A stretch of 63,765 bases of DNA, the filler included, from Stramenopiles sp. TOSAG23-3 (Eukaryota), in the NCBI GenBank assembly GCA_900128585.1. It is 10 parts of 10 records of this genome, joined end to end, with 100 filler letters (N's around TTAATTAATTAA, not from the genome) between each part and the next. Parts side by side here need not be neighbours in the genome. Positions count along the whole stretch, not along the records: positions 21,946 to 32,805 come from LT642777.1; positions 32,906 to 43,764 come from LT642778.1; 8 more parts are not named here. One strand, given 5' to 3'. The stretch's first letter is position 1. Every line of letters begins with the position of its first letter. The notes below the pieces were generated by a model, which ran no database searches, was not told the origin of the DNA, and worked only from the letters and a program-made list of their open reading frames with translations. This document shows positions 10,876-54,817 of the stretch, one piece after another. The position numbers and the translations under genes were made by a program.

Positions 10876-10920
10876 TNNNNNNNNNNNNNNNNNNNNNNNN
10901 NNNNNNNNNNNNNNNNNNNN

Positions 10921-10932
10921 TTAATTAATTAA
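10921..10932. other. Artificial contig linker N-TTAATTAATTAA-N; also at 21890, 32850, 43809, 54762, 56573, 58383, 60193, 62002
   Basis: Identical all-frame-stop 12-mer flanked by equal N runs, occurring nine times; contigs come in near-equal lengths. Confidence 0.97.
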
Positions 10933-11302
10933 NNNNNNNNNNNNNNNNNNNNNNNNNNNNNNNNNNNNNNNNNNNNTGTCGAAAATAAACCATGCTGTGT
11001 GTATGTACAAAAAGGCTGTTTTCGGCAAACGTTCGTTGTCAGCTCTCTATTATCATCACTTGGAATATTAACTAAATAATGGGGACACTGTAATAATAAA
11101 TAGTGTCTAAAAATAATAATAATAATAAAAAAAAAAATAATTAAAAAAAAATATTATTAAAAAATTCCCGCCGCCGCCGTAGTTATAGGCAACAATAATC
11201 ACAGGCGTGCTAAACGAAGTGAGCGGTACCTCATTTTCGCATTGTATTTAACTTTCATAGCGGTTTTGAAAAAGCATTTTTATGCTGTAATTAGTTTCCG
11301 GC

Positions 11303-20130: not shown

Positions 20131-20414
20131 ATATCCGACCTTAAAATAATCAAATTTTTAGTGTAATCACAGGGAGATGCCCTCTCGCATTACATTAGAT
20201 TAGAGATCCTTCCCCACCAAAAAAAAAATGAAGAAGTTATTAGTGTGTGGTGTGGTGTGGTGATCATATTTATCTCAATGATGCATTATAGGAAACAAGC
20301 AATTCAAAAGTTCTGATTACTAACTGTTGTTACAAGGATTTAGGCAGGACCTGACCAGAAGTGTATACAAACACCGAATTGTTACAACCTCTTGCCCCAA
20401 GTATAATTCAAATA

Positions 20415-21392
20415 ATGCGTGCGTTCCTAACAATTTTACCCAAGTTTCAGTTTGCGGAAGAGGCCTTTGACTGGGAAAATGATTCAATTGGCTTCTACAA
20501 CAAGTATGCTTCTCTCTTTGGCTTTATAGGGTTGATGTACTTGCCAATGGTCTTTGGGCTTAAGCACTACATGCACACCCGGGAGCCGCTTGATCTCAAA
20601 GGAGTTTTGATCGTATGGAATCTTTTGCTAGCTGTCCTTTCAGCCTATGGTGCCTACTTCACTGTACCGCAGGGTTGGAAGTTCATTCAGGATAATGGCT
20701 TTGTTGAGGGCATCTGTGATACGAATTGCTACGTGCACCCTTACGCGGTTATTATTCTGCTGTTCAATCTTAGCAAAATGGCCGAGTTTGTTGATACGAT
20801 ATTGTTAAGGTTCCGGAAGAAACCGGTCATATTTTTGCACTGGTATCATCACATTTTGACAATGTTTTACTGCTGGTACGGAAACGTCGTTGGTTCTCTA
20901 TTTAACTGCACGGGGTGGTACTTTGCTGCAATGAATTTGTCAGTGCACTCGATTATGTACTCTTACTATGCCCTGGCAGCAATGGGATATGGTCGGGCAA
21001 TGGCAAAATCTGGACTAAACAAAATAATTACTACCATTCAGATAACGCAGATGTTTGGTGGCATTGGTATAATATTCATGAGCACGCACTGCGATCGGAT
21101 CGACAACCATGGCTTGGTCCTGGCTACAGTAATGTACGTGAGTTATTTGTTTTTATTTGCAAAATTATTTTACGACAAATATGCCGCACCGAGGCTCAGT
21201 AAAACCATTGCTGCATTAAAAAAGAGACAAGGTTTGGCAATTTCTCGACTTAAAGAATCCCACATTATTGCCACGAATCGTTTGGTCGAAGACCATCATT
21301 TGGCTTTGAAACGCGCGTTGGAAGATGAATTGCTTTTGAGCAACTCTGATCGCGCTGCTCGTGGCGGTGTGGGTTTGAAAAAAAATAAGTAA
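20415..21392 (+). CDS. GNS1/SUR4 fatty acid elongase (ELO)
   Basis: SKMAEFVDT, FLHWYHH histidine box, MNLSVHSIMYSYY, TTIQITQM; dilysine-type C-terminus KKNK. Confidence 0.95.
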   Translation: MRAFLTILPKFQFAEEAFDWENDSIGFYNKYASLFGFIGLMYLPMVFGLKHYMHTREPLDLKGVLIVWNLLLAVLSAYGAYFTVPQGWKFIQDNGFVEGICDTNCYVHPYAVIILLFNLSKMAEFVDTILLRFRKKPVIFLHWYHHILTMFYCWYGNVVGSLFNCTGWYFAAMNLSVHSIMYSYYALAAMGYGRAMAKSGLNKIITTIQITQMFGGIGIIFMSTHCDRIDNHGLVLATVMYVSYLFLFAKLFYDKYAAPRLSKTIAALKKRQGLAISRLKESHIIATNRLVEDHHLALKRALEDELLLSNSDRAARGGVGLKKNK

Positions 21393-21845: not shown

Positions 21846-21946
21846 NNNNNNNNNNNNNNNNNNNNNNNNNNNNNNNNNNNNNNNNNNNNTTAATTAATTA
21901 ANNNNNNNNNNNNNNNNNNNNNNNNNNNNNNNNNNNNNNNNNNNNA

Positions 21947-24900
21947 AAGAAACGGGAGGAGGAGGAGAGGACGCAGCGAAACACGGAGGCAGTCAGGAGA
22001 CGCCGTGAGGATCACACCTCGTTCAAAAGATGTGTACACAAAATGTACCACAATGGTTCTATGTGCAGTCATGTACCTACGCCTCTAACAGAATGTGAAA
22101 AGGCGGACATCATCACAAAATTCTCAGACTACGTCAACATTGCGTCTCGTGTGTGTCAAACCTGTGGTGTTGAACGAGACTGCAGGACTAATTTTAACAG
22201 AGTCAAAATTTTTTTAAAAACCGGAAAAGATGCGTACGAAAAAGCAAAAGAATTTGCCACGAAAGATGGGTTTGTGACAAGTTCAGTTAGCCTAAACCTA
22301 ACCCAAACCCTAAACCATAGTGGGTATTGTCTTAACCCAAGGTTGGAGCATTTTAAAGCTCCTGATAACAGTATTGAATTGCGCCATGAAGAAACATACA
22401 CTTCTCCCGATGATTTGGTGACTGTTACATTGGCTGTGTGCAAAGCGAAGCAAGAGAATCGTTGCCAGGAACTTTGGAATCGCATGTTTGGAAATAAGAC
22501 ATTACTGACATGCAAAAAATGTCTAACGACGAACCATTGGTGCAGCTTTTCCAACTTCGAACCGGGAAGAATTCCTGCAGACTTACAGGCACTGGAACCA
22601 AACATTTTGGAAAGAGCAATATTGTCAAAACGCATATGGTCGTCCAAGGGAATGAAGCTCAACGGTAAATTTGAGGGCACAGTAGTGTGCATTAAAAGCA
22701 CACTCGAAGAGGAGGTAGCCTCGGTAGTAAACAAGCTGCCAAGAAAAAATGCACTGGAATATATATCTGCGCAATTCGTTGGTGGAAAAGAGAAACTTGG
22801 AGGTTGTGCTAATGATGCGAATAAGCTTATGCGTGGGCTAAAAGCATCGCTCTCGAAATTAAAATTGCTAATGAAGCTCGTACCAAAACGATTCAGAGAT
22901 GACCGCGTTCAGTGGGCAGATGTACAAACGGAAGTACCAAACGTGGAGATTCTATGCTCGGACAGCCAAGAAGTCTTCAGAGCTGAATCACAGCTAGGAG
23001 GGCATTACGCTGACAAAATTCAACCAGAAAGTGATGAGAATAGTCAAAGCTCTGCAACGTCAGGTGCCATTGAATACGTCATGCTACAAGAAACCAACAT
23101 TGACATGAACAATGAGGATATCGGTGTTGTATCGGCCCTGCAACAAAAGATGGGAATGGCACCTGTTGTTGCAGAGCTTCGATATGGACTATTAAATGAA
23201 ATGAAGGCACTAGGGCAGATTCTCCAAGAGACGTTTACCTTGAATTTCCCCGTCGATGCAATTCCCGAAGGGGTGTCGTTTTCTGAAGTAAAGGATTACC
23301 TTCTTCACTTTTACGATCGCAGGTTTCAGAAAAACAAAGAACTGATTTTGTACTTAGGAAACGTTCATCAGCGGTTTCAATGCTTGTTCGAAACAAACCA
23401 TCGGTTGAGAGCTCACTCTGACCAGAGCAAAGAGTTTATCGAAATGGTGAACAAAGACGGGTTTAAAGAGAAGCTGAAAACTGCCAAAGATCATTTTGCA
23501 AGAATGGAAAAATTGCAGTTCGACTTTACTGCCCTTAGTACACTTCCGGAATCAACGCCACAACGAGAAACGGTGGCAAATCTGCGAAGACAAATTTCAG
23601 CCTTAAAGGCTGATGAAAGCTATCAACAATCTAAAGCTGTGGTCGACACACTCAAAAAGATGCTTCATATGACACAATCTAGAATATCTTTTGGGAAAGC
23701 AGAACGTCTGGCCTTGTTTCCTATATTCTTGGCATACCGCGATTATCATGGAAGTTCAAATCTTTGGGTGACGCTAAATGTGCAAGTAAGAAACTCTGGG
23801 ATTGCGTTTAAAATGACCTATGCTGGCGAAAACCATAATTTGGATAAGGACTTTGTGCTCATGAACGTACGTGTCAACAGGATCAATGAGAACCCTGTAG
23901 CACGTGTCAAAGCTTTCCTATTGCTGTCCCGTGCTACATTCAAGTTCATGTTTGGTATTGAGAGCAGTGAGTTCACAAAAGCAACGAAGGAGGGTAGAAG
24001 AAGAGGGTTGTTTGGAACTGCACATGCAATGGCTGCTGTAACAGAGGATACAGAGAGAGGAAACCTGCATATTCACGCCATGTTATGGGTTGAAAACCAC
24101 GTTAGAATAATGCAAACGTTTCTTGACGACCAGGAAAAACGAAAAAAACTAGAAACGTATATAGCGTCCATTGTAACAGCACACTTCGACGAACAGGATC
24201 ATGACAGATACGATAAATTTCGTTTTGCAACAGAAAAGTTGAACGAGGAAAAGAATCGACTTTTGGGACAGAAACAACATTTGCGAAACACAAATCAGTG
24301 TACCGTTGGTGTGAATGAAGCTATAAAAGCCATTACCGAAAAAGCTCTACCTAAACCGTTTCCTTTTACACTTCTTCGTCGACCATCAACCAAACGTACT
24401 CTGGTCCCAACCTCGTATTGGCATGCTGTCGAGTTTGTAGGAATACTAAAGCAACGATTGAACACTTCAGACAGAGGACATTCCTGTGTAGAAGATAATG
24501 TGTGCAGGAGGTGCTTGATACAAAGTGCTCAGGCCTGCCCCAAGTGTGCGTACGTATACTGTTCCAAATGCATTGACGAATACAACAAAAACTGTGTTGA
24601 AGTCGACATTCCAAGTGAATGTCCAAACTGTGGCCCAACCGCGTGTAGAAAAAGAAAACGTTTCCAAAACAGTGTAAACGGAATGTCTATGTCTATGGAT
24701 GCAGAATACGACGACAAACCACAGTTGCGTTCAGGTGAACTTTCCGACATTGTAAACGGAATGTCTATGTCTATGGATGCAGAATACGACGACAAACCAC
24801 AACTTTCCGACATTGAAAAAAACAAGCTCTTGTTGTACATGGTAGAGCGTCGCCGTGTAAAGTGCATGTATAGGGTAATTCACATTCACCAGGCAACGTG

Positions 24901-27900
24901 CACAAAAACAAAGCGTGGAAAGTTATGCTGCCGTATGGGTTTTCCAAGACCAAAGGTAGAAAAAGGCGGATTTTGCCAACTATCAAAAAACAAAGATGGT
25001 GAGTTGATCATAAACTCTGACATTGAAACATTAACACGAGACCCACAATCAGGGTTGTCACAAAATGGGTACCCAGACGAAGCAATCGATTCACCCGACA
25101 ATCGGATTATTGCAATTAATATCGCGCGCCCAAAGGAAAGGGACCAAAGAATTGTCGAACACAACAGTGTCGTACTTGGTCTATTAGGGTACAACTTCAA
25201 CGCACAATTTATTGGTTCGGAGAGTGCGGCAAAAAATTTAATGATGTACATGGTGAAGTATTCTACTCTGAAATCGTTTGATAAACGGTGTTGGCATACT
25301 TTGGTGCAATCGCAAATGTGTCTGGAACATGTACGTCAACACCCAAGTACTGCAGATAATACCGGAACGAATCGTCGAACAGCATTGCATTTTCTTCAGA
25401 GGTTAAACAACAAAATTATGTCTTCCCAAGAAGTATCAATCGAAACCGTGACTGCAAATTTGCTAGGGGCACACGCACATCATTTATCCCACCAAACTGT
25501 ATTTATCTATCCGTGGCAGGCAGCACGGTTTGTGGCTGAAAATTGGTTCAATTCAATGGGTATGACTGCTGATTACCCGAGTGCAACGTCATTTACGATG
25601 TCAAATGGGCAATTCGGAGTACACCCTGTAGGGGAAGAAGACAATAGTGAACCCCGACGCACTGCAGCCGCACACAGCGCTCAACAAACTTCCTTTGACA
25701 ATGAACAGGGAGGGCACAGCGACCAAGAGGTACTAGTCCCTGATGCAGATGAGCGTTTCTATTCTCGCAATGAGAATAACTTTTCGCTTATCGAACTGAA
25801 TACTAGTGGTGCAGTAACAGTGTGCACCCCTGTCTTGCATTACTTTTACCGAGGAAACAATTCCCTAACACAATTAAACTTTTTGGAGTACCACAGCATG
25901 GTTAAAATTGTGAAAAAGAGGTTAGACGCTCCAGAGATAAATTCAAATGTTGGGCGTAAACGTTACCCTACATATGACCTACACGAGAAACATCCGTGGA
26001 CCCACACACACGTTCAGCAAATGCGGGCAAAACATGTCCTTCCTTGTAGGTGTGGAAAAAAGGAACCCCTTTACCCTGTGAAACGAAAACACGAATCGGA
26101 ACATTCCTTTCAACAACGACGACAGCATTTTGTCAATTACTTTGCGGTTCTCCTGGTGCCATGGCCTGCGGACTACTTCAACGATCAACATCATTCTAAC
26201 CAGTTCCAGCTAGCTCACACATGGACAGGGTTTTGTCGCTACATATACCGTGCAAAACTCAAATATCAGGCATTCGTACACGAGAATAACCGTGGTACAT
26301 TTTCGGACTCAATTCCTATTGAGGATGTATTATCTTTTGGCCGCTACAACAATTTCCTCAACATAGTATCCAGTCGATCACCTGACTCAAAGAACGCGAA
26401 ATTACATTTGCAATTTCGCAGTAGAGACGTGAAGACGTGGCAATGGATGAGAGAAAACGGTTTTAGCCACGAAATTCCCACAATGTACACTTTCAGACAG
26501 CCTCAAACAACCACTGAATCCCTGGCACGAGAGGAAAAAAGGCGAATGATAGAAACCCTTGATTCAAAAACTTCAAGACAATGGGAAATAAAAAAGCAGT
26601 TTTTGGACACACTACATCGTGCTACTATGTTTCTTGATAACTGTGATGGCGATTATACCTCTGTGAGTTCGCCGTCTGCGCCACAACATAGTGTTGTACA
26701 TACAGAAGCATACAGTACGCAGCAACTGGCGGCAATACAGTTACAGTTGGAACGTACCCCTGCAGAACTTACCGATCAACCCGCCGCTCCATTTGGACCA
26801 AACCCGGCAACTGCTGCTCTTCTAACAGCAGACCCGCCATCACACCTGGGAAATGAGCAGAAACAAGTATTCTCCAAGATCATGAAGAAGGTACAGCGAG
26901 GAGAACAAGTTCTGGAATTTCTGTGTGGCCCTCCAGGGACTGGAAAAACATACCTTGTGAATCAGATAGTTGAGCGGCTTCTTGCGTCCCACCTCCGCAT
27001 AGAGGGATGTGCGCCAACTGGTAAAGCCAGTACGCTTATGAGAATAGGAAGACAGTCTGGCCAGACTTTTCACACATTATTCGGCATACCCGGCCGTTCG
27101 GGCGAGCAACGCCGCACGATCAGTAAAGCAAAACAAGAGAAACTATTTCACTTAATTAAAAACGTTGATCTGATAGTTATCGACGAGGCTTTCATGTTGT
27201 CTGCCACATTGTTTGCGGAAGCGCAGAACAACCTGGTGCAAGTACATAAAATGTTTGCTGCTAACAATCCGACTGACCAGACACGACGAGATCCAAACCA
27301 GCCATTCCTTGGAATGCATATTCTCATGGTTGGAGATCCATTTCAAATCCCTCCAATAGGAGGTGCATCGCTATTTTCTGCACTTGTTCGTCTCTCAGTT
27401 GCTAACAACTTGGGTGTTACTCAGTCAGAACTGAGCCGTATCGTAACCATGCTAGGAGCAACTCTCTTTTCCAAATTTCGTGCAAACTTCTTAACAGAAA
27501 TGCAGAGGAGTCACGGAGACATAGAATTTCAAAACTTATTAAAGACCTTTTACACTGAAAAATTTCCCCTCAACGACGCTGCACTTAATAGCATCCAAAA
27601 CTTTACCGAAGACGTAGTACAGGATGATCCAAAATTCGTAAATGCCACGTACTTGGTTGCAACGAACGTTGAACGACATATGCTGAACTCGAAAAGTGCA
27701 AGGCGCTTTGCAAGGCGAACTGGTCAGACACTATATAAATTCTACAACCCGGGTAAACTGCGCGGTGCACAAAAATTCAACACTGCATACAGTCCTGAAG
27801 GACTCTGCCCGATATCCACACGCATGGAACAGCTGTACGGCGACGTCGGCTATAGTTCTTATTTTGTCGTGGGTGCACCAGGTCTTCTGTTGGAAAATAT

Positions 27901-28795
27901 AGCAGTCCCTCTCGGGCTGGCAAACGGGACTGCTTGTCGTTATCATTCATTTGTCCCACACCCTGAACATATCGATATTATTGCTAACAAACATGAAACG
28001 GCCAATACCGACAGAGAACGCATTATCACAATACCGCAGCCAAAGTACATCAACGTCTTTGTAGATGGCCTGTACGAAGTCAATGTTCTGGGAACGACAC
28101 TTCAGGTGAAGGACTCTCATTTTCAAAACAACATGAAACATGGAATTGCAAAAGGACATAAGATCACCTTGATGTATCATGAAGAATTTGACCGATTCAT
28201 CCCCCCTGCTGAAAGATGGACCGGTGGAAGGTCTCATACAATACAATCAGTTCTTCGCCTATCGAATATCGTCCCTGCTTCAAAACTACAAAACAGTAAA
28301 GACAAGGACTGCCAAAGACTTTCTGTAACCCTTACGTTCGCTACCACGATTCATAAGGCCCAAGGCATGAATATGGAACGAGCGATTGTAGTTTTGAACA
28401 AAAAAAATAACAAATACTTTGGAAAGTTTACTCTCGGCCAAATTTACGTTGCATTGTCAAGAGTGCGACAATTAAAACACGTGGCAAAGTTGGTTTCAAA
28501 TGATACTTCCCATCTACAAAGTCTGTGTTATGACAATACCTTGTTAACATGGAAAAGTAACTATGACTCAAATGGGCAGTGGCGCTCCAATGGCATAAGT
28601 GCTGATGCAGTCGTTCATGTTCTCGAACAACTAGACGAGTTGTCTTTTGAATCCAGGTCAACATTAGTCGAAGTCTACAAATTATTAGGCATCAGGTACG
28701 CTAATGTCCGTCTGCAAACGATGCAAAGTCGAGTTCGCACTTGGTACAATTTAGCACAAGCTAGTATAAGAAGAAGAAATCGCACTGAGGCCTGA
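21947..28795 (+). CDS. Helitron RepHel transposase (HUH Rep + Pif1/SF1B helicase), Helitron2/Helentron-like; frame open to the contig edge
   Basis: Rep motifs LWVTLN, ERGNLHIHAMLW (HUH), YMVKY; helicase GPPGTGKT, IVIDEAFM, VGDPFQIPP, TIHKAQG, YVALSRV; N-terminal CxxC...GRIPADLQAL...LPR region; no stop from 21947. Confidence 0.93.
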   Translation, partial: KKREEEERTQRNTEAVRRRREDHTSFKRCVHKMYHNGSMCSHVPTPLTECEKADIITKFSDYVNIASRVCQTCGVERDCRTNFNRVKIFLKTGKDAYEKAKEFATKDGFVTSSVSLNLTQTLNHSGYCLNPRLEHFKAPDNSIELRHEETYTSPDDLVTVTLAVCKAKQENRCQELWNRMFGNKTLLTCKKCLTTNHWCSFSNFEPGRIPADLQALEPNILERAILSKRIWSSKGMKLNGKFEGTVVCIKSTLEEEVASVVNKLPRKNALEYISAQFVGGKEKLGGCANDANKLMRGLKASLSKLKLLMKLVPKRFRDDRVQWADVQTEVPNVEILCSDSQEVFRAESQLGGHYADKIQPESDENSQSSATSGAIEYVMLQETNIDMNNEDIGVVSALQQKMGMAPVVAELRYGLLNEMKALGQILQETFTLNFPVDAIPEGVSFSEVKDYLLHFYDRRFQKNKELILYLGNVHQRFQCLFETNHRLRAHSDQSKEFIEMVNKDGFKEKLKTAKDHFARMEKLQFDFTALSTLPESTPQRETVANLRRQISALKADESYQQSKAVVDTLKKMLHMTQSRISFGKAERLALFPIFLAYRDYHGSSNLWVTLNVQVRNSGIAFKMTYAGENHNLDKDFVLMNVRVNRINENPVARVKAFLLLSRATFKFMFGIESSEFTKATKEGRRRGLFGTAHAMAAVTEDTERGNLHIHAMLWVENHVRIMQTFLDDQEKRKKLETYIASIVTAHFDEQDHDRYDKFRFATEKLNEEKNRLLGQKQHLRNTNQCTVGVNEAIKAITEKALPKPFPFTLLRRPSTKRTLVPTSYWHAVEFVGILKQRLNTSDRGHSCVEDNVCRRCLIQSAQACPKCAYVYCSKCIDEYNKNCVEVDIPSECPNCGPTACRKRKRFQNSVNGMSMSMDAEYDDKPQLRSGELSDIVNGMSMSMDAEYDDKPQLSDIEKNKLLLYMVERRRVKCMYRVIHIHQATCTKTKRGKLCCRMGFPRPKVEKGGFCQLSKNKDGELIINSDIETLTRDPQSGLSQNGYPDEAIDSPDNRIIAINIARPKERDQRIVEHNSVVLGLLGYNFNAQFIGSESAAKNLMMYMVKYSTLKSFDKRCWHTLVQSQMCLEHVRQHPSTADNTGTNRRTALHFLQRLNNKIMSSQEVSIETVTANLLGAHAHHLSHQTVFIYPWQAARFVAENWFNSMGMTADYPSATSFTMSNGQFGVHPVGEEDNSEPRRTAAAHSAQQTSFDNEQGGHSDQEVLVPDADERFYSRNENNFSLIELNTSGAVTVCTPVLHYFYRGNNSLTQLNFLEYHSMVKIVKKRLDAPEINSNVGRKRYPTYDLHEKHPWTHTHVQQMRAKHVLPCRCGKKEPLYPVKRKHESEHSFQQRRQHFVNYFAVLLVPWPADYFNDQHHSNQFQLAHTWTGFCRYIYRAKLKYQAFVHENNRGTFSDSIPIEDVLSFGRYNNFLNIVSSRSPDSKNAKLHLQFRSRDVKTWQWMRENGFSHEIPTMYTFRQPQTTTESLAREEKRRMIETLDSKTSRQWEIKKQFLDTLHRATMFLDNCDGDYTSVSSPSAPQHSVVHTEAYSTQQLAAIQLQLERTPAELTDQPAAPFGPNPATAALLTADPPSHLGNEQKQVFSKIMKKVQRGEQVLEFLCGPPGTGKTYLVNQIVERLLASHLRIEGCAPTGKASTLMRIGRQSGQTFHTLFGIPGRSGEQRRTISKAKQEKLFHLIKNVDLIVIDEAFMLSATLFAEAQNNLVQVHKMFAANNPTDQTRRDPNQPFLGMHILMVGDPFQIPPIGGASLFSALVRLSVANNLGVTQSELSRIVTMLGATLFSKFRANFLTEMQRSHGDIEFQNLLKTFYTEKFPLNDAALNSIQNFTEDVVQDDPKFVNATYLVATNVERHMLNSKSARRFARRTGQTLYKFYNPGKLRGAQKFNTAYSPEGLCPISTRMEQLYGDVGYSSYFVVGAPGLLLENIAVPLGLANGTACRYHSFVPHPEHIDIIANKHETANTDRERIITIPQPKYINVFVDGLYEVNVLGTTLQVKDSHFQNNMKHGIAKGHKITLMYHEEFDRFIPPAERWTGGRSHTIQSVLRLSNIVPASKLQNSKDKDCQRLSVTLTFATTIHKAQGMNMERAIVVLNKKNNKYFGKFTLGQIYVALSRVRQLKHVAKLVSNDTSHLQSLCYDNTLLTWKSNYDSNGQWRSNGISADAVVHVLEQLDELSFESRSTLVEVYKLLGIRYANVRLQTMQSRVRTWYNLAQASIRRRNRTEA

Positions 28796-28837
28796 GCTAG
28801 AAAGAAGTTCATTCTCTTCACCATTGGAAATAAATGA

Positions 28838-29414
28838 AGATAGTGTACTAGATGTCGTAAATAGCATTGTATTCTGTTAATAATTAGAAGACTTCTTATT
28901 AAGTTGACAGGTTAACGCGACACCGTTGACTTGACAAACACTGAATTTAGAATCCAGATAACAGCATTATAACACTGCTACAATACTTTTCTGTACTCAT
29001 TAAATATTCTGCAATAATACAACAGGCTATGGCATTGTATCGTCTGCAACAACAAGTTCTTCTTGNNNNNNNNNNNNNNNNNNNNNNNNNNNNNNNNNNN
29101 NNNNNNNNNNNNNNNNNNNNNNNNNNNNNNNNNNNNNNNNNNNNNNNNNNNNNNNNNNNNNNNNNNNNNNGCATTGTATCGTCTGCAACAACAAGTTCTT
29201 CTTGTCAGATACTGTACTAGATGTCGTAAATAGCATTGTATTCTGTTAAATTAGAAGACTTCTTATTCGCGTTAACTTGACAAACACTGAATTTACAATC
29301 CAGATAACAGCATTATAACACTGCTACAATAGTTTTCTGTACTCATTAAATATTCTGCAATAATACACCAGGCTATGGCATTGTATCGTCTGCAACAACA
29401 AGTTCTTCTTGTCA
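28838..29414. repeat. ~210-230 bp tandem repeat array just downstream of RepHel (partly gapped)
   Basis: AGATA.TGTACTAGATGTCGTAAATAGCATTG...GGCATTGTATCGTCTGCAACAACAAGTTCTTCTTG present as two near-full units plus a unit tail after the gap. Confidence 0.9.
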
Positions 29415-29587
29415 GCCCACTACTACTATTATTATTGCACGGAAGCCTATTGGGATAGTGCAGAGAGTTTCTTTTTGAAAATGGGACTAAAGTACCTCCA
29501 AATCGATTGGTTTCCAGAATACAAGGGCAAAATAATCATCAACAATCAAAACCAAAATTAAAATCGACATCAATAACAAAAACAATC

Positions 29588-29917
29588 ATGAGTAATTACT
29601 TTGTAAAAAAAACAAACCTAAAACCCATTACGTGTGGCATTCCGTGGGTCGGGTGTCGACTGTACAAAGGCATGGGGCAAGGCATGGCGGACGTAAGTAT
29701 GGCGGACTACCCAACGGGGTACTGGGGGGCTACGGTAATTGCTCGTCTTCGAGACGAATGGGTTTTACGTTTCGACGAAACGTACGGCGATTTATGGGAC
29801 TCTTCTTGGCAGTTCGACGATCCGCCAGAAAGCAGACTGGAGTTCGAACGAACCGGGCGAGAGATCGTCTACTACGGCGAAATTGAAGAAGCCGATGAGT
29901 TTTATGTAACAAAATAA
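29588..29917 (+). CDS. Small hypothetical protein, possible Tudor/SH3-like barrel
   Basis: 109-aa ATG ORF, GC-richer than its flanks; VGCRLYK...GYWGATVIAR...WVLRFDE pattern. Confidence 0.55.
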   Translation: MSNYFVKKTNLKPITCGIPWVGCRLYKGMGQGMADVSMADYPTGYWGATVIARLRDEWVLRFDETYGDLWDSSWQFDDPPESRLEFERTGREIVYYGEIEEADEFYVTK

Positions 29918-30187
29918 ATTCTTCGCAAAGTACTTTGGCGAAATTGAAGAAGCCGATGAGTTTTATGTAACAAAATAAATTCTTCGTAAAGTACTTTATA
30001 ATAATAATAATGTAGTGACAAAATACTATACAGTACGAAAGTAAAAATAATATTATGTCCTTCAAAACACACTGCTTTGGGGAATCACTTGTTCGCCGAT
30101 GAGCTAATCGGGTTTCCATAACCCACTCTGGGTTTTTTCACTGGTGCTGGTTCCTCGTCCCATTTCCGTTTTCCGCCTGGAAGCGGT

Positions 30188-31072
30188 TCAACCCAATCTG
30201 GGTTTTTTCACTGGTGTTGGTTCCTCGTCCCAGTTCCGTTTTCCGCCTGGAAGCGGTTCATCGTCAACATCATATACGGACTTCTTTTCCTCAAGCATTT
30301 CCGCTCGCTCTGCCAACGCTGCTTTTGCAACTTCATCTGGGTCGTCACCTTCAATAGACTTGCCCTTTTTGTTTACCAAAAACAAGTTCGTGTCCACTTT
30401 CATCGGGCGACCCTTCTCCAACAAGACCAAGTCCTTCATGAATACGGCCTTCACACCATACATGTCTGGGTCACTTTTGCTCTGGAAGAAATACAAACGC
30501 AGCGGTATATGTACCACTGCATTCGTAATGCTTTCTTTAAGCAACGACACTTTGCTAAGGCGTCCATCCTTAACAGTTTGAAATGCTACTGCTGCCATCG
30601 GCTGACCCGAGTAAGCAAAAGCTTTCTGTGTCATCACAATGGTTTCGCCAGCATTCCAGGCAATCTTTGCACCGCTTATGAAAGCCTCTGCATTCTTTCG
30701 CTTACCGGCCTTCTTTCCTTTCTCGTTCTCATAGACCAGCCTTAGTAACTGATGAGTGGCATCCATCAGCATCTTTCCTTGCTCCTCGGCCATCATGCGA
30801 TTCTCCTTCTTAAGATTCCTTAGCCAGGAAGAATCGTCTCTTGGAATTCGTACCCGAAGAACACGCTTTGCATCTTTCCTCTGTCGACAGAAGCGAAGGT
30901 TCCCCTCTTCAGTGAGGTTGTGTGAGTCAATCTGCATCCCTTGAAGGTGAAGCTTCAAAGGTACGACCCTGCCATTATCCTTCACCCCCAGCTCCTTGAA
31001 ATAGGAATGGTGGAATAAGACTGTCGTTTCCAACAACTCTTCGGATATCCGTTTGCCATAATCAGCGTTCAT
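30188..31072 (-). CDS. Hypothetical protein, candidate OB-fold ssDNA-binding protein with acidic tail and C-terminal NLS
   Basis: 294-aa intact ORF; strand pattern VVHIPLRLYFF...MYGVKAVFMKDLVLLE; acidic tail ending PVKKPRLG. The ORF is well supported; the function is inferred. Confidence 0.6.
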   Translation of the reverse strand: MNADYGKRISEELLETTVLFHHSYFKELGVKDNGRVVPLKLHLQGMQIDSHNLTEEGNLRFCRQRKDAKRVLRVRIPRDDSSWLRNLKKENRMMAEEQGKMLMDATHQLLRLVYENEKGKKAGKRKNAEAFISGAKIAWNAGETIVMTQKAFAYSGQPMAAVAFQTVKDGRLSKVSLLKESITNAVVHIPLRLYFFQSKSDPDMYGVKAVFMKDLVLLEKGRPMKVDTNLFLVNKKGKSIEGDDPDEVAKAALAERAEMLEEKKSVYDVDDEPLPGGKRNWDEEPTPVKKPRLG

Positions 31073-31923
31073 GGTGTGATATTTTCGTAAATCTTTTTAG
31101 CAATTTTATCTTTTATCAAATTTATTTGTTATACATATACAACTTCATGCAAACGCTTTCTTTTCTGAACGCTTTCTTTTCTGAACGCAACACATACGCC
31201 CGAACATGTTACGTGTACCACATATACCCACACCCACCGACAGCTGCGTACAATTGTATTATTATTATTGAATTCATTATTATAATCACTACCACCGAGC
31301 CATACTATACTACTACAACACCAGCAAAAATACAATTTCCTCGGTGATGGACANNNNNNNNNNNNNNNNNNNNNNNNNNNNNNNNNNNNNNNNNNNNNNN
31401 NNNNNNNNNNNNNNNNNNNNNNNNNNNNNNNNNTCCTCGGTGATGGACACAACGTATCCACTATGACTCCACTATGATATGTACCTGATGGACTTATTTC
31501 GTTCACATTATTTACTACGACTTCTACTTCTTCTTTTAACCCAAATACCTTCCTAGGACGATGTTATACAACTTTTTTCTCCTATTTTTGTTTGAAAGAC
31601 CACAACAATACTGTCATTTTACAACAACTACAACAAATTTTTTTGCTTCGACGTGCTTTTTTCTTTCCCATTCTGCTTTTTTGTTCGAGTTGTTTGTTGT
31701 TTATATGTTTCTTGAGTTTTCGTATTTGGTTTTAAAGTTGTTTGTTCGCGTAAAATTTCTTCTTGTTCGTGTGTATGTTTTTCTTATTTGTTGATAAATT
31801 TTATTATATAATATAATTATCGTTCAATAGTGCGTGCTTTTAATTAATTTCTTAGTTAAATTAAATTAAACGATTGACTTATCAATTGTCTTTTGTTTTA
31901 TAGCGCTGTTTATAATATTTACT

Positions 31924-32376
31924 ATGCCATTAACATTGCCAAGGGACGTCCTCATCCTGATATTTCAGTACCACCCCTTTTGGACCCAAAAAAATGTGTA
32001 CCGCAACTATTTCCTCCTGTCGTCGGTGTGTCCATCCTGGAACGACGCATTGACATTCATTCGCCAAACGCACCGGCAGTTGTTTCAGCAAATATTTCAA
32101 CAAATTACACCGATACAGAAAAGCATCCCGGTCCAACCATTGGATTATCGCTGGAGATGGACCGCCCGCAAGACCGAGCAATATTTTGACTCCTACTTTT
32201 ACAAAGCAAGGAGATTTTTGGAAATCAAGGGTATTTCGGAACGAAGCACGGCGAAAACGTTGTCCAAATTCCTGAAAAACTATTTCAGGCAAGTGCGCGT
32301 GTACTCGTGCGCGTGGCAGCAGAAGTCAGTGTCCATCATGTGCTGGAAACCTAGGGCGAAGATCGACATCTCTTAG
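31924..32376 (+). CDS. F-box-like protein
   Basis: LTLPRDVLILIFQY...LSSVCPSWN matches the F-box consensus LP.E....IF.YL...L..VCK.W. Confidence 0.7.
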   Translation: MPLTLPRDVLILIFQYHPFWTQKNVYRNYFLLSSVCPSWNDALTFIRQTHRQLFQQIFQQITPIQKSIPVQPLDYRWRWTARKTEQYFDSYFYKARRFLEIKGISERSTAKTLSKFLKNYFRQVRVYSCAWQQKSVSIMCWKPRAKIDIS

Positions 32377-32396
32377 AACTGGGTAGTCGCGACAAC

Positions 32397-32630
32397 GATA
32401 GATTTGAAAAATAAATGATAGATTTGATGGTATTCCATGTTATATAAATGATAGATGGTATTCGATGTAATATAATAAATGATAGATTTGAAGAATAAAT
32501 GATAGATTTGAAGAATAAATGATAGATTTGAAGAATAAATGATAGATTTGAAGAATAAATGATAGATTTGATGGTATTCCATGTATATAAATGATAGATG
32601 CTATTCCATGTGGTAGATTTGAAGAATAAA
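32397..32630. repeat. 20-bp minisatellite GATAGATTTGAAGAATAAAT with higher-order variants
   Basis: Several exact tandem copies at 32481-32570 plus degenerate flanking copies. Confidence 0.9.
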
Positions 32631-33229
32631 ACATTATTATTATTTGTTCATTATTACTATTATTATTATTACTTTTATTATTTGTTACTATAGGCTTTAA
32701 CGCTGGGAATAAAAACACATTGTGATAGTAATACATTATCTTAAAAACACATTCTAATAGTAATACATTATCTAAAGACGAATTTAAACACATTCTCATA
32801 CTAATNNNNNNNNNNNNNNNNNNNNNNNNNNNNNNNNNNNNNNNNNNNNTTAATTAATTAANNNNNNNNNNNNNNNNNNNNNNNNNNNNNNNNNNNNNNN
32901 NNNNNGAAAGAAAGAAAGGAAGGAAAGATAAAATGGCTCCTCCACAAAAACAACAACCTTCTTCCTTTTTTTTTTGTAGAGTTAGCTCTATCAAATTATT
33001 ACTCTGCTCTCTCTGATCTTGCCTTCCTGCCGCCTCTCTTTTTGTTTTTAACACTTCAATTCATTTTGCCCTTACGACCTACGACCTACGAACCTATTAA
33101 TATTAATAATACCTATTAAGTCCATCTTAAATAATTGGCACTCTCTCTCTTCGTTCTCCTCTGCTTTTCTTGTGTCGTCGTTTTTTTATTAATAATAAAA
33201 CATTGAAATTTCTATTCTTTTTTTCTTTC

Positions 33230-33522
33230 GACTCTTCTTCTTTCTTTCTTTCTTTCTTTCTTTCGACACTTTCTTTCTTCTTCTTCTCTCTTCTATCTTC
33301 TTCTCTCTTCTTCTCTCTTCTTCTCTCTTCTTTCTTCTTTCTTCTTCTTCTTCTTCTTCTTCTTCTTCTTTCTTCTTCTTTTCTCTTCTTCTTCTTTTAT
33401 CTTCTTCTTCTTTCTTCTTCTTCTTCTTCTTCTTCTTTTTCTTCTTCTTTCTTCTTCTTCTTTCTTCTTCTTCTTCTTCTTCTTCTTCTTTCTTCTTCTT
33501 CTTCTTCTTCTTCTTCTTCTTC
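33230..33522. repeat. (CTT)n-rich low-complexity tract; similar tracts near 10668-10876, 43865-44005, 56265-56528, 60249-60390, 61797-61957
   Basis: Direct inspection; many contigs end in such tracts. Confidence 0.95.
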
Positions 33523-34076
33523 TATTATTATTTATATTTATATCTAAAATAATAATAATACCTCCTCGTTCGTAGAAAAAAGAAGAACAGTTAAAAACAT
33601 TATTATTTTTTATAATTTTAACTTTAAAATGCTATACAGTGTACATTATATTGCTATATAACTTCTTCTATTTTATCTTCTTATTGAATTTGGAGTGAAG
33701 TGAACTTTTTTTTGTATTTATTTAGATGGTGTGTATATGTTAATATCTATTTTTTAACGACGCAAGTTGAATAAAGTACTTTTAAACAACTTAAACTATG
33801 ATATCTACCTATTTAAATTTTTATTGTTGACTTCTACTTGTGTTCAAGAGTACTTTTGTTTGGGTGGTACCATTTTTAATTTGAAAATATATATATTCAT
33901 TATTTAGGTTTGTGAGGAAACCAAAACATTGAAACGATGTTTGACGCAACGAAATAGTTGAGAAAGTGTCTATACATACATCGAGGAAAGTAAAAGAGGA
34001 TTTACCATTCTTACACCGCCCCTCTCAGCCTCCCCCCCGCCCTTTTGTCTTTCTTTCTTGCTTGCGTGCTTTGCCA

Positions 34077-37000
34077 ATGGAAGAGACCACGACGACGACC
34101 AGCCCGGACCACTCGTCCGCTGCCCCGACCCCTGGCAAGTCGAAGGACAGGCGGGGTAAGGATGGGGAGAGGATGAAACGGAAGAAACGGGAACGGCGGA
34201 AGCGGGCAGAGCTGAAAGAGGGCCTTGGTAAAGCGGTCCACGCGAAGCGGGACATCACGCAGGCCCCGGTCGGGCAGACGGCCGTTCTTGCGGAGAACAA
34301 TTTTTACTTCCAACAGCGACGGGGGCGCCTCGACTTGCGGTCCATCGCAAGGGTGGACGTGGAGCGCGTCATCGAGGACGTCGACATCGACACCCTTCAG
34401 TCGTTCCTGGAACCCATCGCCTTCTCAGACTTGGACGTGGACGACATGTCTCGGCATTCGGACGAACACTTTGTCACTCTCTTTCGCCTCTCCCAGCTCA
34501 TCATAGAATACCTTTTGAACGTCCAAAACTCGCTCCTGACCTACGCCAAAGACGCCGAGTCCGAAACGGAAAAGTTAGAGGCCGCCGCGCGGGAGGGGAA
34601 CCGAAGGCTTAAGAGCCGGAAGAAGGCCATGGAAAGTTTGAGGCGGGAGATCAAGCTGAACCGGAAGACCATCGCCACGTACGAGGAAGTCATGAAGCAG
34701 AAGAGCGCGGCCCATGTACAGAGGGTCCAGTCCGACGTCGTTGACCTCGGCGGGCGGAAGTTTGTCGCCGTCGACCACATACGGGCCAAGGCGCAGGGGA
34801 AAAGCCTCGACGACGACCGGGCGCACGGGCGGGCCGAGAGGGCCAGGCGGCTCCAGGACGAAGAGCGGATCGCGGTGGCGGAGAGGGCGCGCGCGGAAGC
34901 CGAGGCCGAGCGCAAAAAGTTAGAGCTGGCCGCCCTCGCAGCACAGCACGAAGCGAAGCTCAAGGCCGTCCTGGAAGCGAAGGAGAAGGAGGACGCGAAG
35001 CTGCGGGAAGAGCTCCAGCGCGAGCGCGAGCTTCGGCAACTCGCGGAGCAAAAGGCAGAGGCGGCGCAGAAGGAGGAGCAGACAGTCCTGGCCAACAACC
35101 AAGTAGAGATGGAGGCCCGGTTTCAAGAGCAGATTCGAAGGATGAAGGAAAGCATGGAGAAAGAAATGGCCGAGCAACGGGCGTTCGCGCAACAGCAAAT
35201 CTCGAACCTCGAGGGGAAGCGCGGGGCCCCGGTCCCGTCGTCCGCGGGGGACCTCGAGAGCGACAGCGAGGACGAGGAAGGGGCAATTCACGACCGCGTG
35301 AGCTGGGGCGCCATGCGCAAAAGCCGCAAAGAGATGGAGGCCCTGATGAAGCAGAAGGAAGCGGAGCTGGAAGAGGCCAGGAAGCTTGCGGAAGCGGCGG
35401 AACGGAAGGTCCAAGAAGAAAAGGAAAAGCGAGAAGGACTCCTCGAGCTGGAGCGGGAGAAGGCCGCAAAGCTGGCGGAAGAGGTGCAAGCGCAGAAAAG
35501 CATCAACGAGGAGTTGGCCCAAGAGAAGGATGAGGCGGTCAACCGCTCCGTCGCCTTGGAAGAGTCCATCACGGAGATTCAAACCATGAACAGCGAAGGG
35601 AAAACGAACGAGGAGCCGGGGCTGGAAACTGTGGAGGCCGCCGAGCCGGTGGAAGCGGTAGAAGAGGAGACAGAAAAGAAGACCTTCTACCCCATGTACG
35701 ATTGGAAAGCGGTGCCCGCGAACCACGTGCCGTTCAACGCCCACCAGCTGGACTCCCGCGATGGGCCCCCGAAGGAAGTGAAAATACCGATCATATGGCA
35801 GCTGAACATGTCGCTGGAAGGCGGGAACAACGGGTCCCCCGCTAGCGTAGACGTGCAGACGCGGAGAGAAATGTCCGTTCGCCAAGTGCTGGAAGACGCG
35901 GCGTCCCAACTCGGGGTCGATGCCGACCACCTGTGCCTGATCTACCAACGCCACGAAGACGGGGCGGAAGATTTTCTAAATTTCAACGCCGGGCACCGCG
36001 TTGATAACGCCATGACGGTCGAGTCCGCCGGGATATTCAACCGGCGGCCTCGCCTGTGCCGAGTCGGCGACGTCACGGAGGGCGACGTGCTGCGGTTTGT
36101 GGAAAGTTACGAGTACGCGAAGGAGAACCATTCCCCGTTCGACGACGACGTTCAGGACCAGATGGATCTGTGGGACCAGAAAATTATGAAGTCTGAAAAG
36201 GCCAAGCTTGCGTTGGCAAAACAGCTGAAGCCGCGCCCTCGGCAAGCCACCCAAGCGGCCATGCACGACGGCGTGACGGCCCAGTACGACCACGGAAAAG
36301 GGGACATTGCTGCGGCGGTCGAGGCCATCAAGGCCCAGCTCATACCGGATGAATTGGTGTTCAACGATCTGATGGACCACGACGAAGACGTCCCGATGTA
36401 CATGTTAGACGAGGATTTCGAAGAGCTGATGGAAGAATCCTGGCACGTGAACAAGAAGAAATACGCGAAAACGTCGACGGAAACGGTAGAGGATGAAGTC
36501 GAAAAAATCGTCGAGGCCAACATGAAGGCGCACCTGGCAGAGCGGAAGAAGAAGATGCACAAAAAATGGACCGACATGGACTCCAGAATGGAAGCGTTGC
36601 GCACAAAACACGACGCCATGATCGAAGCCGCAGTCCAATCGCTGAACAGTCGGAACAAGCCGATGACGAAGCTGGAACGAAAGGTTGGCATTCGAAACTT
36701 GTTCACAAAGATGCACAGCCTTTACTTTGGAAAACTTTTGAAGCCCGATATTGTTTCCCAGGCGGACGTAATAAACGAACAGAACTTGGCAGAAAAGCAG
36801 CCAGGAAAGAGAAGAAAAGCCGCAGGAATTTTTGGAGCGGCCAGCCGCGCACTCAACGCTTTTGGCAAAAAAAACAAGGCCTCTTCCAAAGCCAAGATTC
36901 CGCAGAAAAAACCTGCGGTAAAGACGCCCCAAAGAAACCCCCCCGCGAAAAGCAAGAGCCACACGCACCATAAAAAAAAAACAGAAGAAAAAGTAGAATT

Positions 37001-37448
37001 CGAAGAATCCAACGACGACTCCGACGAGGAAAACGAAGACACAGACGACACCGAAGAAGATGTCGGGATGAACGACAGCCTGAAGGCTGATCTGAACAGC
37101 ACAATGGGGTCGGATATTGTAGAGTTCGGAACGCTGGAAATTGGTAACAAGGCGGACAAGTATGAAAATGAAAACAAACCAACGGAAGAGCCACTGAGCG
37201 GTACCCGTGACTTAAAACAAGAGGCGGAGGCAGAAATGATCAAAGTGCAAGGGGCAAATTTGGACGTCCCCGACCGCGAGGAGGAGCCGGCGGTCGCAAT
37301 GACCCCAGTCAGAGCGAACAAAAGAGAGAGAAGTTCGCCATTAGAGGACGAGTTCGAAGACGACAGCGATGAAGGCAGCTGGGATGAGGATAGCATGACG
37401 CTGTCTCCAAACCCTCAGAAAAAACAGCCCAACAACCGTGAAATTTAA
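34077..37448 (+). CDS. DZIP1: DZIP1/Iguana-like ciliary coiled-coil protein
   Basis: Dzip-like N domain FYFQQRRGRLDLRSIARVDVERVIEDVDIDTLQ...LFRLSQLIIEYLL followed by long coiled coils. Confidence 0.8.
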   Translation: MEETTTTTSPDHSSAAPTPGKSKDRRGKDGERMKRKKRERRKRAELKEGLGKAVHAKRDITQAPVGQTAVLAENNFYFQQRRGRLDLRSIARVDVERVIEDVDIDTLQSFLEPIAFSDLDVDDMSRHSDEHFVTLFRLSQLIIEYLLNVQNSLLTYAKDAESETEKLEAAAREGNRRLKSRKKAMESLRREIKLNRKTIATYEEVMKQKSAAHVQRVQSDVVDLGGRKFVAVDHIRAKAQGKSLDDDRAHGRAERARRLQDEERIAVAERARAEAEAERKKLELAALAAQHEAKLKAVLEAKEKEDAKLREELQRERELRQLAEQKAEAAQKEEQTVLANNQVEMEARFQEQIRRMKESMEKEMAEQRAFAQQQISNLEGKRGAPVPSSAGDLESDSEDEEGAIHDRVSWGAMRKSRKEMEALMKQKEAELEEARKLAEAAERKVQEEKEKREGLLELEREKAAKLAEEVQAQKSINEELAQEKDEAVNRSVALEESITEIQTMNSEGKTNEEPGLETVEAAEPVEAVEEETEKKTFYPMYDWKAVPANHVPFNAHQLDSRDGPPKEVKIPIIWQLNMSLEGGNNGSPASVDVQTRREMSVRQVLEDAASQLGVDADHLCLIYQRHEDGAEDFLNFNAGHRVDNAMTVESAGIFNRRPRLCRVGDVTEGDVLRFVESYEYAKENHSPFDDDVQDQMDLWDQKIMKSEKAKLALAKQLKPRPRQATQAAMHDGVTAQYDHGKGDIAAAVEAIKAQLIPDELVFNDLMDHDEDVPMYMLDEDFEELMEESWHVNKKKYAKTSTETVEDEVEKIVEANMKAHLAERKKKMHKKWTDMDSRMEALRTKHDAMIEAAVQSLNSRNKPMTKLERKVGIRNLFTKMHSLYFGKLLKPDIVSQADVINEQNLAEKQPGKRRKAAGIFGAASRALNAFGKKNKASSKAKIPQKKPAVKTPQRNPPAKSKSHTHHKKKTEEKVEFEESNDDSDEENEDTDDTEEDVGMNDSLKADLNSTMGSDIVEFGTLEIGNKADKYENENKPTEEPLSGTRDLKQEAEAEMIKVQGANLDVPDREEEPAVAMTPVRANKRERSSPLEDEFEDDSDEGSWDEDSMTLSPNPQKKQPNNREI

Positions 37449-43741: not shown

Positions 43742-44192
43742 ACCTTTGCAACAACAACAACAACNNNNNNNNNNNNNNNNNNNNNNNNNNNNNNNNNNNN
43801 NNNNNNNNTTAATTAATTAANNNNNNNNNNNNNNNNNNNNNNNNNNNNNNNNNNNNNNNNNNNNAAGAAGAAGAAGAAGAAGAAGAAGAAGAAGAAGAAG
43901 AAGAAGAAGAAGAAGAAGAGAAGAAGAAGAAGAAGAAGAAGAAGAAGAAAGAAAAGAAAAAGAAGAAGAAAAAGAAAAGAAAGAAGAAGAAAAAAAAGAA
44001 GAAGAATGAATGAGAGACTTGTTTATTTGTTTAATAGGACTATTATACCGAAACATAAATGCGTAATACTATATATACTTCTACGTATACAATTTGTGAA
44101 TTTTATCATTCGATTTCATTCAGGTTTTCTTTACGCCGATTTGTGTGGTACTATATATTGTTTCTTCCTTCTCAAAAAAGGGATCAGTCATT

Positions 44193-54715: not shown

Positions 54716-54817
54716 GGNNNNNNNNNNNNNNNNNNNNNNNNNNNNNNNNNNNNNNNNNNNNTTAATTAATTAANNNNNNNNNNNNNNNNNNNNNNNNNNN
54801 NNNNNNNNNNNNNNNNN

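Follow-up and report, generated by a model that had tools for sequence, protein, structure and literature searches.

Helitron-like elements and the locus examined

The closest described systems to the locus examined here are the Helitron-like rolling-circle transposons of the HELIANO catalogue, among which PMC11417382 describes the classes HLE1 and HLE2. HLE1 elements have a 5' TC, a 3' hairpin followed by CTRR, and insertion between A and T, terminal signals that the same source cautions are common by chance. HLE2 elements (Helentron / Helitron2) have terminal inverted repeats of 12-16 nucleotides (nt), T-T insertion, DUF6570 and often an endonuclease (EN) or OTU domain; DUF6570 is reported to mark the HLE2 clade, the endonuclease is reported almost exclusively from HLE2, and OTU and RPA are found in both classes. 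RPA, Ssb-like_OB, OTU and FBA_3 (F-box-associated) are among the extra domains listed there, and a domain is regarded as captured when its place is conserved from copy to copy within a family (PMC11417382). The locus compared with these systems is a Helitron-type transposase (RepHel) gene with three small open reading frames (ORFs) of 109, 294 and 150 amino acids (aa), on one scaffold (LT642777.1) of Stramenopiles sp. TOSAG23-3, at positions 21946-32805 (10,860 bp) of a stretch of 63,765 bases referred to below as the window; coordinates are window positions unless another contig is named.

On the scaffold lies a genuine rolling-circle transposase gene, from a Helitron-like transposon of a marine eukaryote; the small ORFs are probably its neighbours and not its toolkit. 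A sequence-only reading of the same DNA had proposed an intact Helitron with a virus-like accessory module, consisting of its own ssDNA-binding protein (SSB; ORF294), a Tudor-like reader (ORF109) and an F-box adaptor of SKP1-cullin-F-box (SCF) type (ORF150).

The RepHel ORF

The long ORF (21947..28795, plus strand) is open at the 5' edge of the scaffold, has its first in-window ATG at 22043, and encodes 2250 aa from that codon without a stop (22043-28795). Pfam Helitron_like_N matched residues 419-681 at 31.1 bits against a cut-off of 28.9, placing a Rep (HUH nuclease) domain at 23297..24085 (plus strand) with H-I-H at residues 676-678, and Pfam PIF1 matched residues 1602-1773 at E 1.3e-25. 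A PIF1-like superfamily 1 (SF1) helicase region was delimited at residues 1602-2143 (26846..28471, plus strand) from the Pfam PIF1 match, PDB sequence matches (PIF1 chains at E 1e-11, Helraiser 7lcc at E 3.5e-5) and motifs, with Walker A (GPPGTGKT) at residue 1629 and DEAF (Walker B) at residue 1714. The candidate two-tyrosine motif, Y-M-V-K-Y, lies at residues 1069-1073 (25247..25261, plus strand). Going by the family consensus, we take HIH (676), YMVKY (1069), Walker A (1629) and DEAF (1714) to be the catalytic motifs. The domain matches and motifs support, at the sequence level, a predicted Helitron-type RepHel transposase with its putative catalytic motifs in place, and on this point the sequence-only reading was borne out. 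As is established for Helitrons, such a transposase would nick one strand at the 5' end of the element, its helicase would unwind the nicked strand in the 5'-3' direction, and a single-stranded circle would then be transferred to a new site.

In its architecture the ORF resembles canonical Helitrons of the HLE1 class (Helraiser), being a single ORF with a Helitron_like_N Rep followed by a PIF1-like helicase, with an HUH motif and a candidate two-tyrosine motif, and with no DUF6570, endonuclease or OTU found. It differs from them in its length (at least 2250 aa) and in the unusually long spacing of ~390 aa from the HUH motif to the tyrosine motif, within which lie a Cys-rich insert (~residues 815-870) and an in-frame duplication with 78-nt spacing; its sequence is similar to that of Helraiser only in the helicase. 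The tandem duplication between the two motifs (24669-24801) has units of 55 nt that are 98% identical and spaced by 78 nt, and through it 17 residues occur twice in frame. As a gene, RepHel here is one more Helitron transposase from a little-studied marine eukaryote, useful for annotation and unsurprising. Among the matches listed for Helitron combined with marine, protist, single-cell or stramenopile terms there is no paper on the Helitrons of such organisms, which is not to claim that there is none.

Termini and class of the element

The RepHel frame has no stop from the first base of the scaffold to the ATG at 22043, and in a related metagenome contig of 7,306 bp (L001, described below) RepHel starts 72 codons upstream of that ATG. 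The ORF is therefore cut by the scaffold end, and the 5' terminus of the element lies outside the window; no 5' TC terminus was found on the scaffold. In L001 the RepHel start is preceded by 1.9 kb of AT-rich DNA that contains sub-repeats of 141 and 224 nt, and comparison of this upstream region with the 3' side gave only short, AT-rich inverted repeats. The sub-repeat array occupies L001 1077-1710, and every unit starts with a motif that recurs at window 31603-31639.

On the 3' side, five CTRR sites in 28796-29587 could be scored, and these have weak upstream hairpins (-1.6 to -5.5 kcal/mol) and are followed in all five cases by A, not T. No convincing HLE1-type 3' end (hairpin and CTRR, then T) was found in 28796-29587 of the single copy examined, and in this, as in the 5' TC, the locus may differ from canonical HLE1 elements. 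The point at which a metagenome contig (X8, see below) leaves the window after CTAG at 28848-28851 was considered as a boundary and rejected, as its loose letters resemble, by eye, a diverged version of the same sequence. With the ORF running off the scaffold and neither terminus identified, the description of the element as an intact Helitron is not supported.

DUF6570 was not found in the N-terminal 419 aa of RepHel or in residues 687-1586 (E up to 10), and no endonuclease (Exo_endo_phos), OTU or RPA domain was found across the whole protein (E up to 0.1). Of the HLE2 domains, neither DUF6570 nor Exo_endo_phos nor OTU was found within these limits, domain absence in a divergent protein being weak evidence, and by predicted domain content the element leans towards the canonical Helitrons (HLE1).

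Gene order in a related contig and in wild metagenomes

Contigs of three DNA metagenomes (X3, X6 and X8) and of an oligo-dT RNA library (X17) were aligned to the scaffold. The metagenome runs were chosen through the middle piece of the scaffold, for which 0.38-0.52 of its words were present in 13 marine or seawater metagenome runs; for that reason depth differences between RepHel and ORF294 in these runs are no measure of copy number. Two further small runs contain the piece nearly entire and may be its source. Six loci, L001 among them, were taken from Joint Genome Institute (JGI) metagenome contigs scanned with the ORF109 family alignment.

The L001 contig has 2,002 bp upstream of the scaffold start and is then collinear with the scaffold to 30768, where the contig ends within ORF294, so the order RepHel, ORF109, ORF294 is real. 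Identity to the window is 97.4% over 21946-22830 and 98.7% over 26100-28813; the RepHel segment in between (22831..26099, plus strand; 3.27 kb) is deleted in L001, with 39 AT-rich bases in its place. At 28813..28814, 18 bp past the RepHel stop, L001 carries a 116-bp AT-rich insertion that is also present in X3 and X8, and downstream of it one 230-nt unit, ORF109 and then ORF294. The deletion breakpoint at 22830 is a loose end in X3 too, and this breakpoint and the 116-bp insertion together account for the loose ends of X3 and X8 at 22830 and 28814. An empty site had been considered for the loose ends before 28814 and was discarded, these being explained by the insertion shared with L001.

Near-identical RepHel fragments were found in X3, X6 and X8 (1-12 differences per 167-729 nt). 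The segment deleted from L001 (22831-26099) is likewise near-identical in X6 and X3, with one difference each in X6 over 23443-23609 and 24232-24470. The RepHel gene is thus polymorphic in nature for an internal deletion. Window and L001 versions of RepHel differ at 11.5 synonymous and 42.5 nonsynonymous positions in 1159 codons, which equals the neutral expectation, and the two versions have diverged neutrally. In lacking 3.27 kb of the RepHel ORF, L001 and X3 resemble non-autonomous or deleted Helitron derivatives, from which this form differs in being seen only at possibly one locus and in having no evidence of mobilisation. Within the RepHel coding sequence (CDS) of L001 stand three to four telomere-like CCCTAA units (L001 2348-2371), which are degenerate in the window copy (~22291-22314).

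It is quite unlikely that scaffolding or chimeric amplification in the source assembly brought RepHel and the small ORFs together. The scaffold is indeed interrupted by N at 29066-29170 and at 31354-31433, gaps with flanks that share 34 and 16 nt respectively and that spread RepHel and the small ORFs over three assembled pieces; two tandem duplications of the window have a single copy in L001 and among the metagenome contigs, and the segment 31640-32701, treated below, is not reproduced at this position. Set against an assembly error of this kind, L001 and contigs of X8, X3 and X6 independently bridge 28814-29508 (an X8 contig) and 30215-31639. Contigs of X3, X6 and X8 close the second gap (31354..31433), so that pieces 2 and 3 are genuine neighbours as far as 31639, and the two flanks of the 1,062-bp segment 31640-32701 are contiguous in the metagenomes, as fits a clean insertion or deletion and not a chimeric join.

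Self-comparison of the window gave two copies of ~230 nt, 88% alike, around the first gap (28838..29411; copies at 28838-29065 and 29207-29411). This sequence is single-copy in L001 and in an X8 contig, and the duplication is probably an assembly artefact or a polymorphism. A 61-nt repeat at 29870-29991 likewise has one copy in L001 and in metagenome contigs. Since the metagenome contigs collapse both the 346-nt and the 61-nt duplication, these are either artefacts or variants private to the window. The earlier description of an uninterrupted RepHel ORF and three compact ORFs on one contig stands as regards the ORFs, which are free of stops; it fails as regards the contig, which is a linker-bounded scaffold of three pieces split by gaps.

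ORF109

ORF109 (109 aa; 29588..29917, plus strand) has twelve relatives at 49-98% identity, with 16 invariant columns. Its ratio of nonsynonymous to synonymous substitution rates (dN/dS) is 0.12 against L001 and 0.06 against L002, another of the six loci. ORF109 is a real gene, one of a conserved family of small proteins that comprises several sequence types and is under purifying selection.

The proposed Tudor-like identity found no signal in Pfam or among PDB sequences. Tudor-type Pfam families (Tudor/Agenet/chromo-like) matched none of the 13 ORF109 family members (E up to 5), the family profile retrieved nothing better than E 1.3 from PDB sequences, and NCBIfam gave no match for ORF109. 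An AlphaFold model built from the 13-row alignment is all-beta with a predicted local distance difference test (pLDDT) of 41, which is too poor for fold comparison and neither shows nor excludes a Tudor fold. In the ESM Atlas the best score was 0.85, with unnamed clusters on top, and the listed rows at that level include two DUF families.

The four window proteins were searched by tblastn against the six loci with ORF109 relatives, which offer 0.9-2.8 kb of upstream and 0.6-2.9 kb of downstream flank and count L003-L005, one locus in three samples, among the six. RepHel and ORF294 were found in L001 alone (1/6), and ORF150 in none (0/6). In L002 (75% identity to ORF109), neither RepHel nor ORF294 occurs in the 1.65 kb upstream or the 0.68 kb downstream; in L003-L005 (55% identity) the ORF109 homologue stands between two other ORFs, and in L006 the relative is a 145-nt fragment only. 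This shows that the ORF109 family is not dependent on RepHel; it does not thereby settle the place of the window copy relative to the element. ORF109 is best read as a neighbour of RepHel, from a family that occurs elsewhere without it.

The two large ORFs that flank the homologue in the organism of L003-L005 (GC 0.47-0.49) are distantly paralogous to each other (23% identity, 96 aa, E 1e-6); examples are L004 49-2115 on the minus strand and L003 3091-4101, and they belong to no known family. A tyrosine recombinase identity, considered for these ORFs from a motif at the C-terminus, was dropped for want of support in Pfam, NCBIfam and PDB.

Within the ORF109 CDS, the window (29588-29875) and L001 (6187-6474) differ at 44 of 288 positions (15.3%), from 29605 to 29874 and mostly at third codon positions. 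The flanks show 4 differences in 428 bases upstream and 18 in 832 downstream (0-2.8% diverged), and contigs of X6 and X3 display the same divergence confined to the CDS. The simplest reading of this island is CDS-limited exchange (gene conversion) with a diverged paralogue, an alternative being allele classes that have been kept for a long time. A CDS ~15% diverged inside near-identical non-coding DNA may outweigh the original claim in value.

ORF294

ORF294 (294 aa; 30188..31072, minus strand) is an orphan ORF. A word-based search returned only its own 90% cluster (30 members), and an exhaustive HMMER search of 1.84 billion representatives matched one fragment of the same protein. An SSB, OB or RPA identity, as had been suggested for it, received no signal in Pfam (E up to 0.1) or NCBIfam, and no PDB sequence matched better than E 0.67. 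The AlphaFold model, from a single sequence, has a pLDDT of 34 and is too poor for fold comparison; in the ESM Atlas unnamed clusters were on top with a score of 0.93, recognition being below the reliable range.

A 70-nt tandem duplication (30120..30259) covers the C-terminus and stop of ORF294 and is also present in L001, so it is real. The cluster alignment (16 members and the window protein, 17 rows) has 5 rows with another ending past residue 239, and several more are rearranged. The N-terminus of one cluster member (P0019) may resemble a retrotransposon reverse-transcriptase motif.

All 16 metagenome variants listed in ORF294 (window 30191-31072) are nonsynonymous and are spread evenly over codon positions; the listing holds the best-supported variants, with 102 further variants across the scaffold outside it. 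With ~22% synonymous sites, 0 of 16 synonymous has a chance of ~0.02. Against L001, ORF294 shows 0.5 synonymous and 10.5 nonsynonymous differences. These variants point to diversifying selection or to no constraint, and the best reading of ORF294 is a lineage-restricted orphan that is fast-evolving or unconstrained. An orphan with only amino-acid-changing variants listed across ocean metagenomes may, like the ORF109 island, outweigh the original claim in value.

In the X17 library, in which parts without RNA cover are uninformative, two contigs of 151 nt align at 29937-30070 and 30439-30584, on or beside ORF294. They hint at transcription of the ORF294 region but do not prove it.

ORF150 and the 1,062-bp segment

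ORF150 (150 aa; 31924..32376, plus strand) has relatives at 99, 85 and 68% identity. Its residues 4-43 gave sub-threshold Pfam matches to F-box-like (17.6 bits, cut-off 24.3) and F-box (15.5 bits, cut-off 20.5), and 3 of the 4 ORF150 family members have the F-box-like match (E 0.0028-0.01), all of these being weak and N-terminal.

The ORF lies on a 1,062-bp segment (31640..32701) that is present in the window and skipped in 3/3 DNA metagenomes: in X3, X6 and X8, the contigs with ORF294 and the region upstream of it follow the window as far as 31639 and pick it up again at 32702. Pieces of the ORF150 region in X3 and X8 stand on other flanks; their loose ends lie before 31796 and after 31820 and 32487. 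A search of the segment for terminal inverted repeats and for a target-site duplication found neither. ORF294 and ORF150 are not neighbours in the sampled wild populations, and ORF150 is best read as a weakly F-box-like gene carried by a 1,062-bp indel that is missing from this site in the wild. An F-box gene beside the Helitron, as the sequence-only reading had it, is not supported: the match is below the Pfam cut-off, and the segment is missing here in 3/3 metagenomes.

A 37-nt motif (31603..31639, plus strand) ends exactly at the exit point of the metagenome contigs, 31639. It also opens the sub-repeat units that precede RepHel in L001 (L001 1282-1317; E 1e-6 against the window).

Relation of the small ORFs to the element

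The reading under which RepHel, ORF109 and ORF294, without the F-box-like ORF, form one composite multi-gene Helitron ending near 31639 is not very likely, and it is equally doubtful that ORF294 is encoded by the element and evolves fast, for example in a conflict with host silencing, while ORF109 is a captured gene of a host family. The 3/3 metagenomes diverge from the window at 31639, at the end of the motif shared with the L001 sub-repeats, as would suit an element boundary. This divergence is nevertheless fully accounted for by the 1,062-bp indel with its rejoining at 32702, the sequence at 31639 ends in ...AAATT and not in a hairpin and CTRR, and no terminal inverted repeat joins the L001 upstream region to the 3' side. 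RepHel, ORF109 and ORF294 are tightly spaced, and in L001 their order is kept and the DNA between them is nearly identical; a second copy in other surroundings was not seen, however, and L001 may be the same locus in another individual. The variants of ORF294 (0/16 listed synonymous; 0.5 synonymous against 10.5 nonsynonymous differences from L001) speak for a composite element, RepHel and ORF294 both have many structural variants, and Helitron-like elements with additional ORFs beyond RepHel on its downstream side are on record (PMC11417382). Counting against one composite element, 5 of the 6 loci with ORF109 relatives have neither RepHel nor ORF294, and the GC content at third codon positions (GC3) of the small ORFs is unlike that of RepHel: 0.52-0.64 as compared with 0.41, two genes on neighbouring scaffolds having 0.49-0.72, which is weak evidence.

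It is unlikely that the whole is a multi-gene Helitron of an abundant marine protist, present in full-length and deleted forms, in which ORF294 would be under diversifying selection and ORF109 would be a captured gene whose CDS is repeatedly overwritten. Overwriting of ORF109 from diverged copies elsewhere in the genome would, on that account, explain a 15% island confined to the CDS.

A toolkit of ssDNA-binding protein, Tudor-like reader and F-box SCF adaptor carried by an intact Helitron is highly improbable. Its appeal lies in the compactness of the ORFs, the lack of a known host gene on the scaffold (Pfam recognised none, as the sequence-only reading had observed), the sub-threshold N-terminal F-box-like match in 3/4 ORF150 family members and the predicted all-beta model of ORF109, yet at pLDDT 41. 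RPA, Ssb-like_OB and F-box-associated domains are also reported from other Helitron-like elements (PMC11417382). ORF294 and ORF109 match no SSB, OB, RPA or Tudor family in Pfam or NCBIfam and no such PDB sequence, and the absence of the F-box-like ORF's segment at this site in 3/3 metagenomes largely refutes the F-box part. The 5' terminus, moreover, is off the scaffold and the 3' terminus undefined, and ORF109 occurs elsewhere without RepHel. A toolkit of SSB, Tudor and F-box proteins is not supported.

The locus resembles the elements with captured domains in the HELIANO catalogue in having small ORFs downstream of RepHel, one of them weakly F-box-like. It differs from them in that the arrangement is kept in one related locus only (L001), 5/6 ORF109 loci being without RepHel, and in that none of the catalogued domains is above threshold here. 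As for stable capture, RepHel stands beside an ORF109 relative in 1/6 loci, and ORF294 has no relatives for comparison. The tblastn co-occurrence of the small ORFs with RepHel (1/6 only), the 5/6 loci in which ORF109 relatives are without RepHel, ORF294 and ORF150, and the absence of the ORF150 segment in 3/3 metagenomes all speak against an accessory module. So do the divergence island of the ORF109 CDS, which fits exchange with diverged copies located elsewhere, the lack of SSB, Tudor or above-threshold F-box matches and, weakly, the GC3 values. Ssb-type and F-box-associated extra domains of Helitron-like elements are already catalogued, so that the toolkit idea, even if true, would be a variant of a known theme (PMC11417382).

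Nor did the virus-like character find support, scans of viral contigs having produced no true relative for the four proteins. In IMG/VR the scans gave nothing related to RepHel, ORF294 or ORF150, and one ORF109 match, in viral contig L007, was rejected as spurious, lying in a non-genic frame of a high-GC contig.

Several observations weigh against the preferred reading of a transposase gene with unrelated small neighbours. Autonomous Helitrons often have further ORFs downstream, and ORF109 starts only ~450 bp past the RepHel stop once the duplication is collapsed. Since no terminus was found, the small ORFs cannot be placed outside the element, and 31639, where the 37-nt motif ends, could be an element boundary. 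The RepHel-ORF109-ORF294 order kept in L001 would also be expected of a second copy of a composite element. Truncated or rearranged forms of RepHel (loose ends at 22830, 26365 and 28420) and of ORF294 (5/17 rows) are present in metagenomes, and such broken forms look like a decaying repeat family. The ORF109 loci that lack RepHel span only 2.4-4.1 kb and belong to organisms at a greater distance, and the leaning towards HLE1 derives from absent domains, not from phylogeny.

Window layout

The window is not one molecule; its 63,765 bases are ten scaffolds separated by nine artificial linkers of the form N44-TTAATTAATTAA-N44, the first five scaffolds being ~10.85 kb each and the last five ~1.7 kb each. 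RepHel and the small ORFs all lie on scaffold 21946-32805, which starts at the first base after the linker that parts it from the preceding scaffold (21846..21945) and is joined to the next by another (32806..32905). An ELO gene (20361-21392) and a Dzip1-like gene (33966-37448) are on other scaffolds and therefore say nothing about linkage to RepHel. As a practical lesson, windows of linker-joined scaffolds should be split at the linkers before synteny is read. Rfam gave no matches on scaffold 21946-32805. Linkers also stand at 10877-10976, 43765-43864 and 54718-54817 and at four more places, and synteny across them is meaningless. Long CTT/CTTT microsatellite tracts at 33200-33540 and at several scaffold ends are a likely cause of the assembly breaks.

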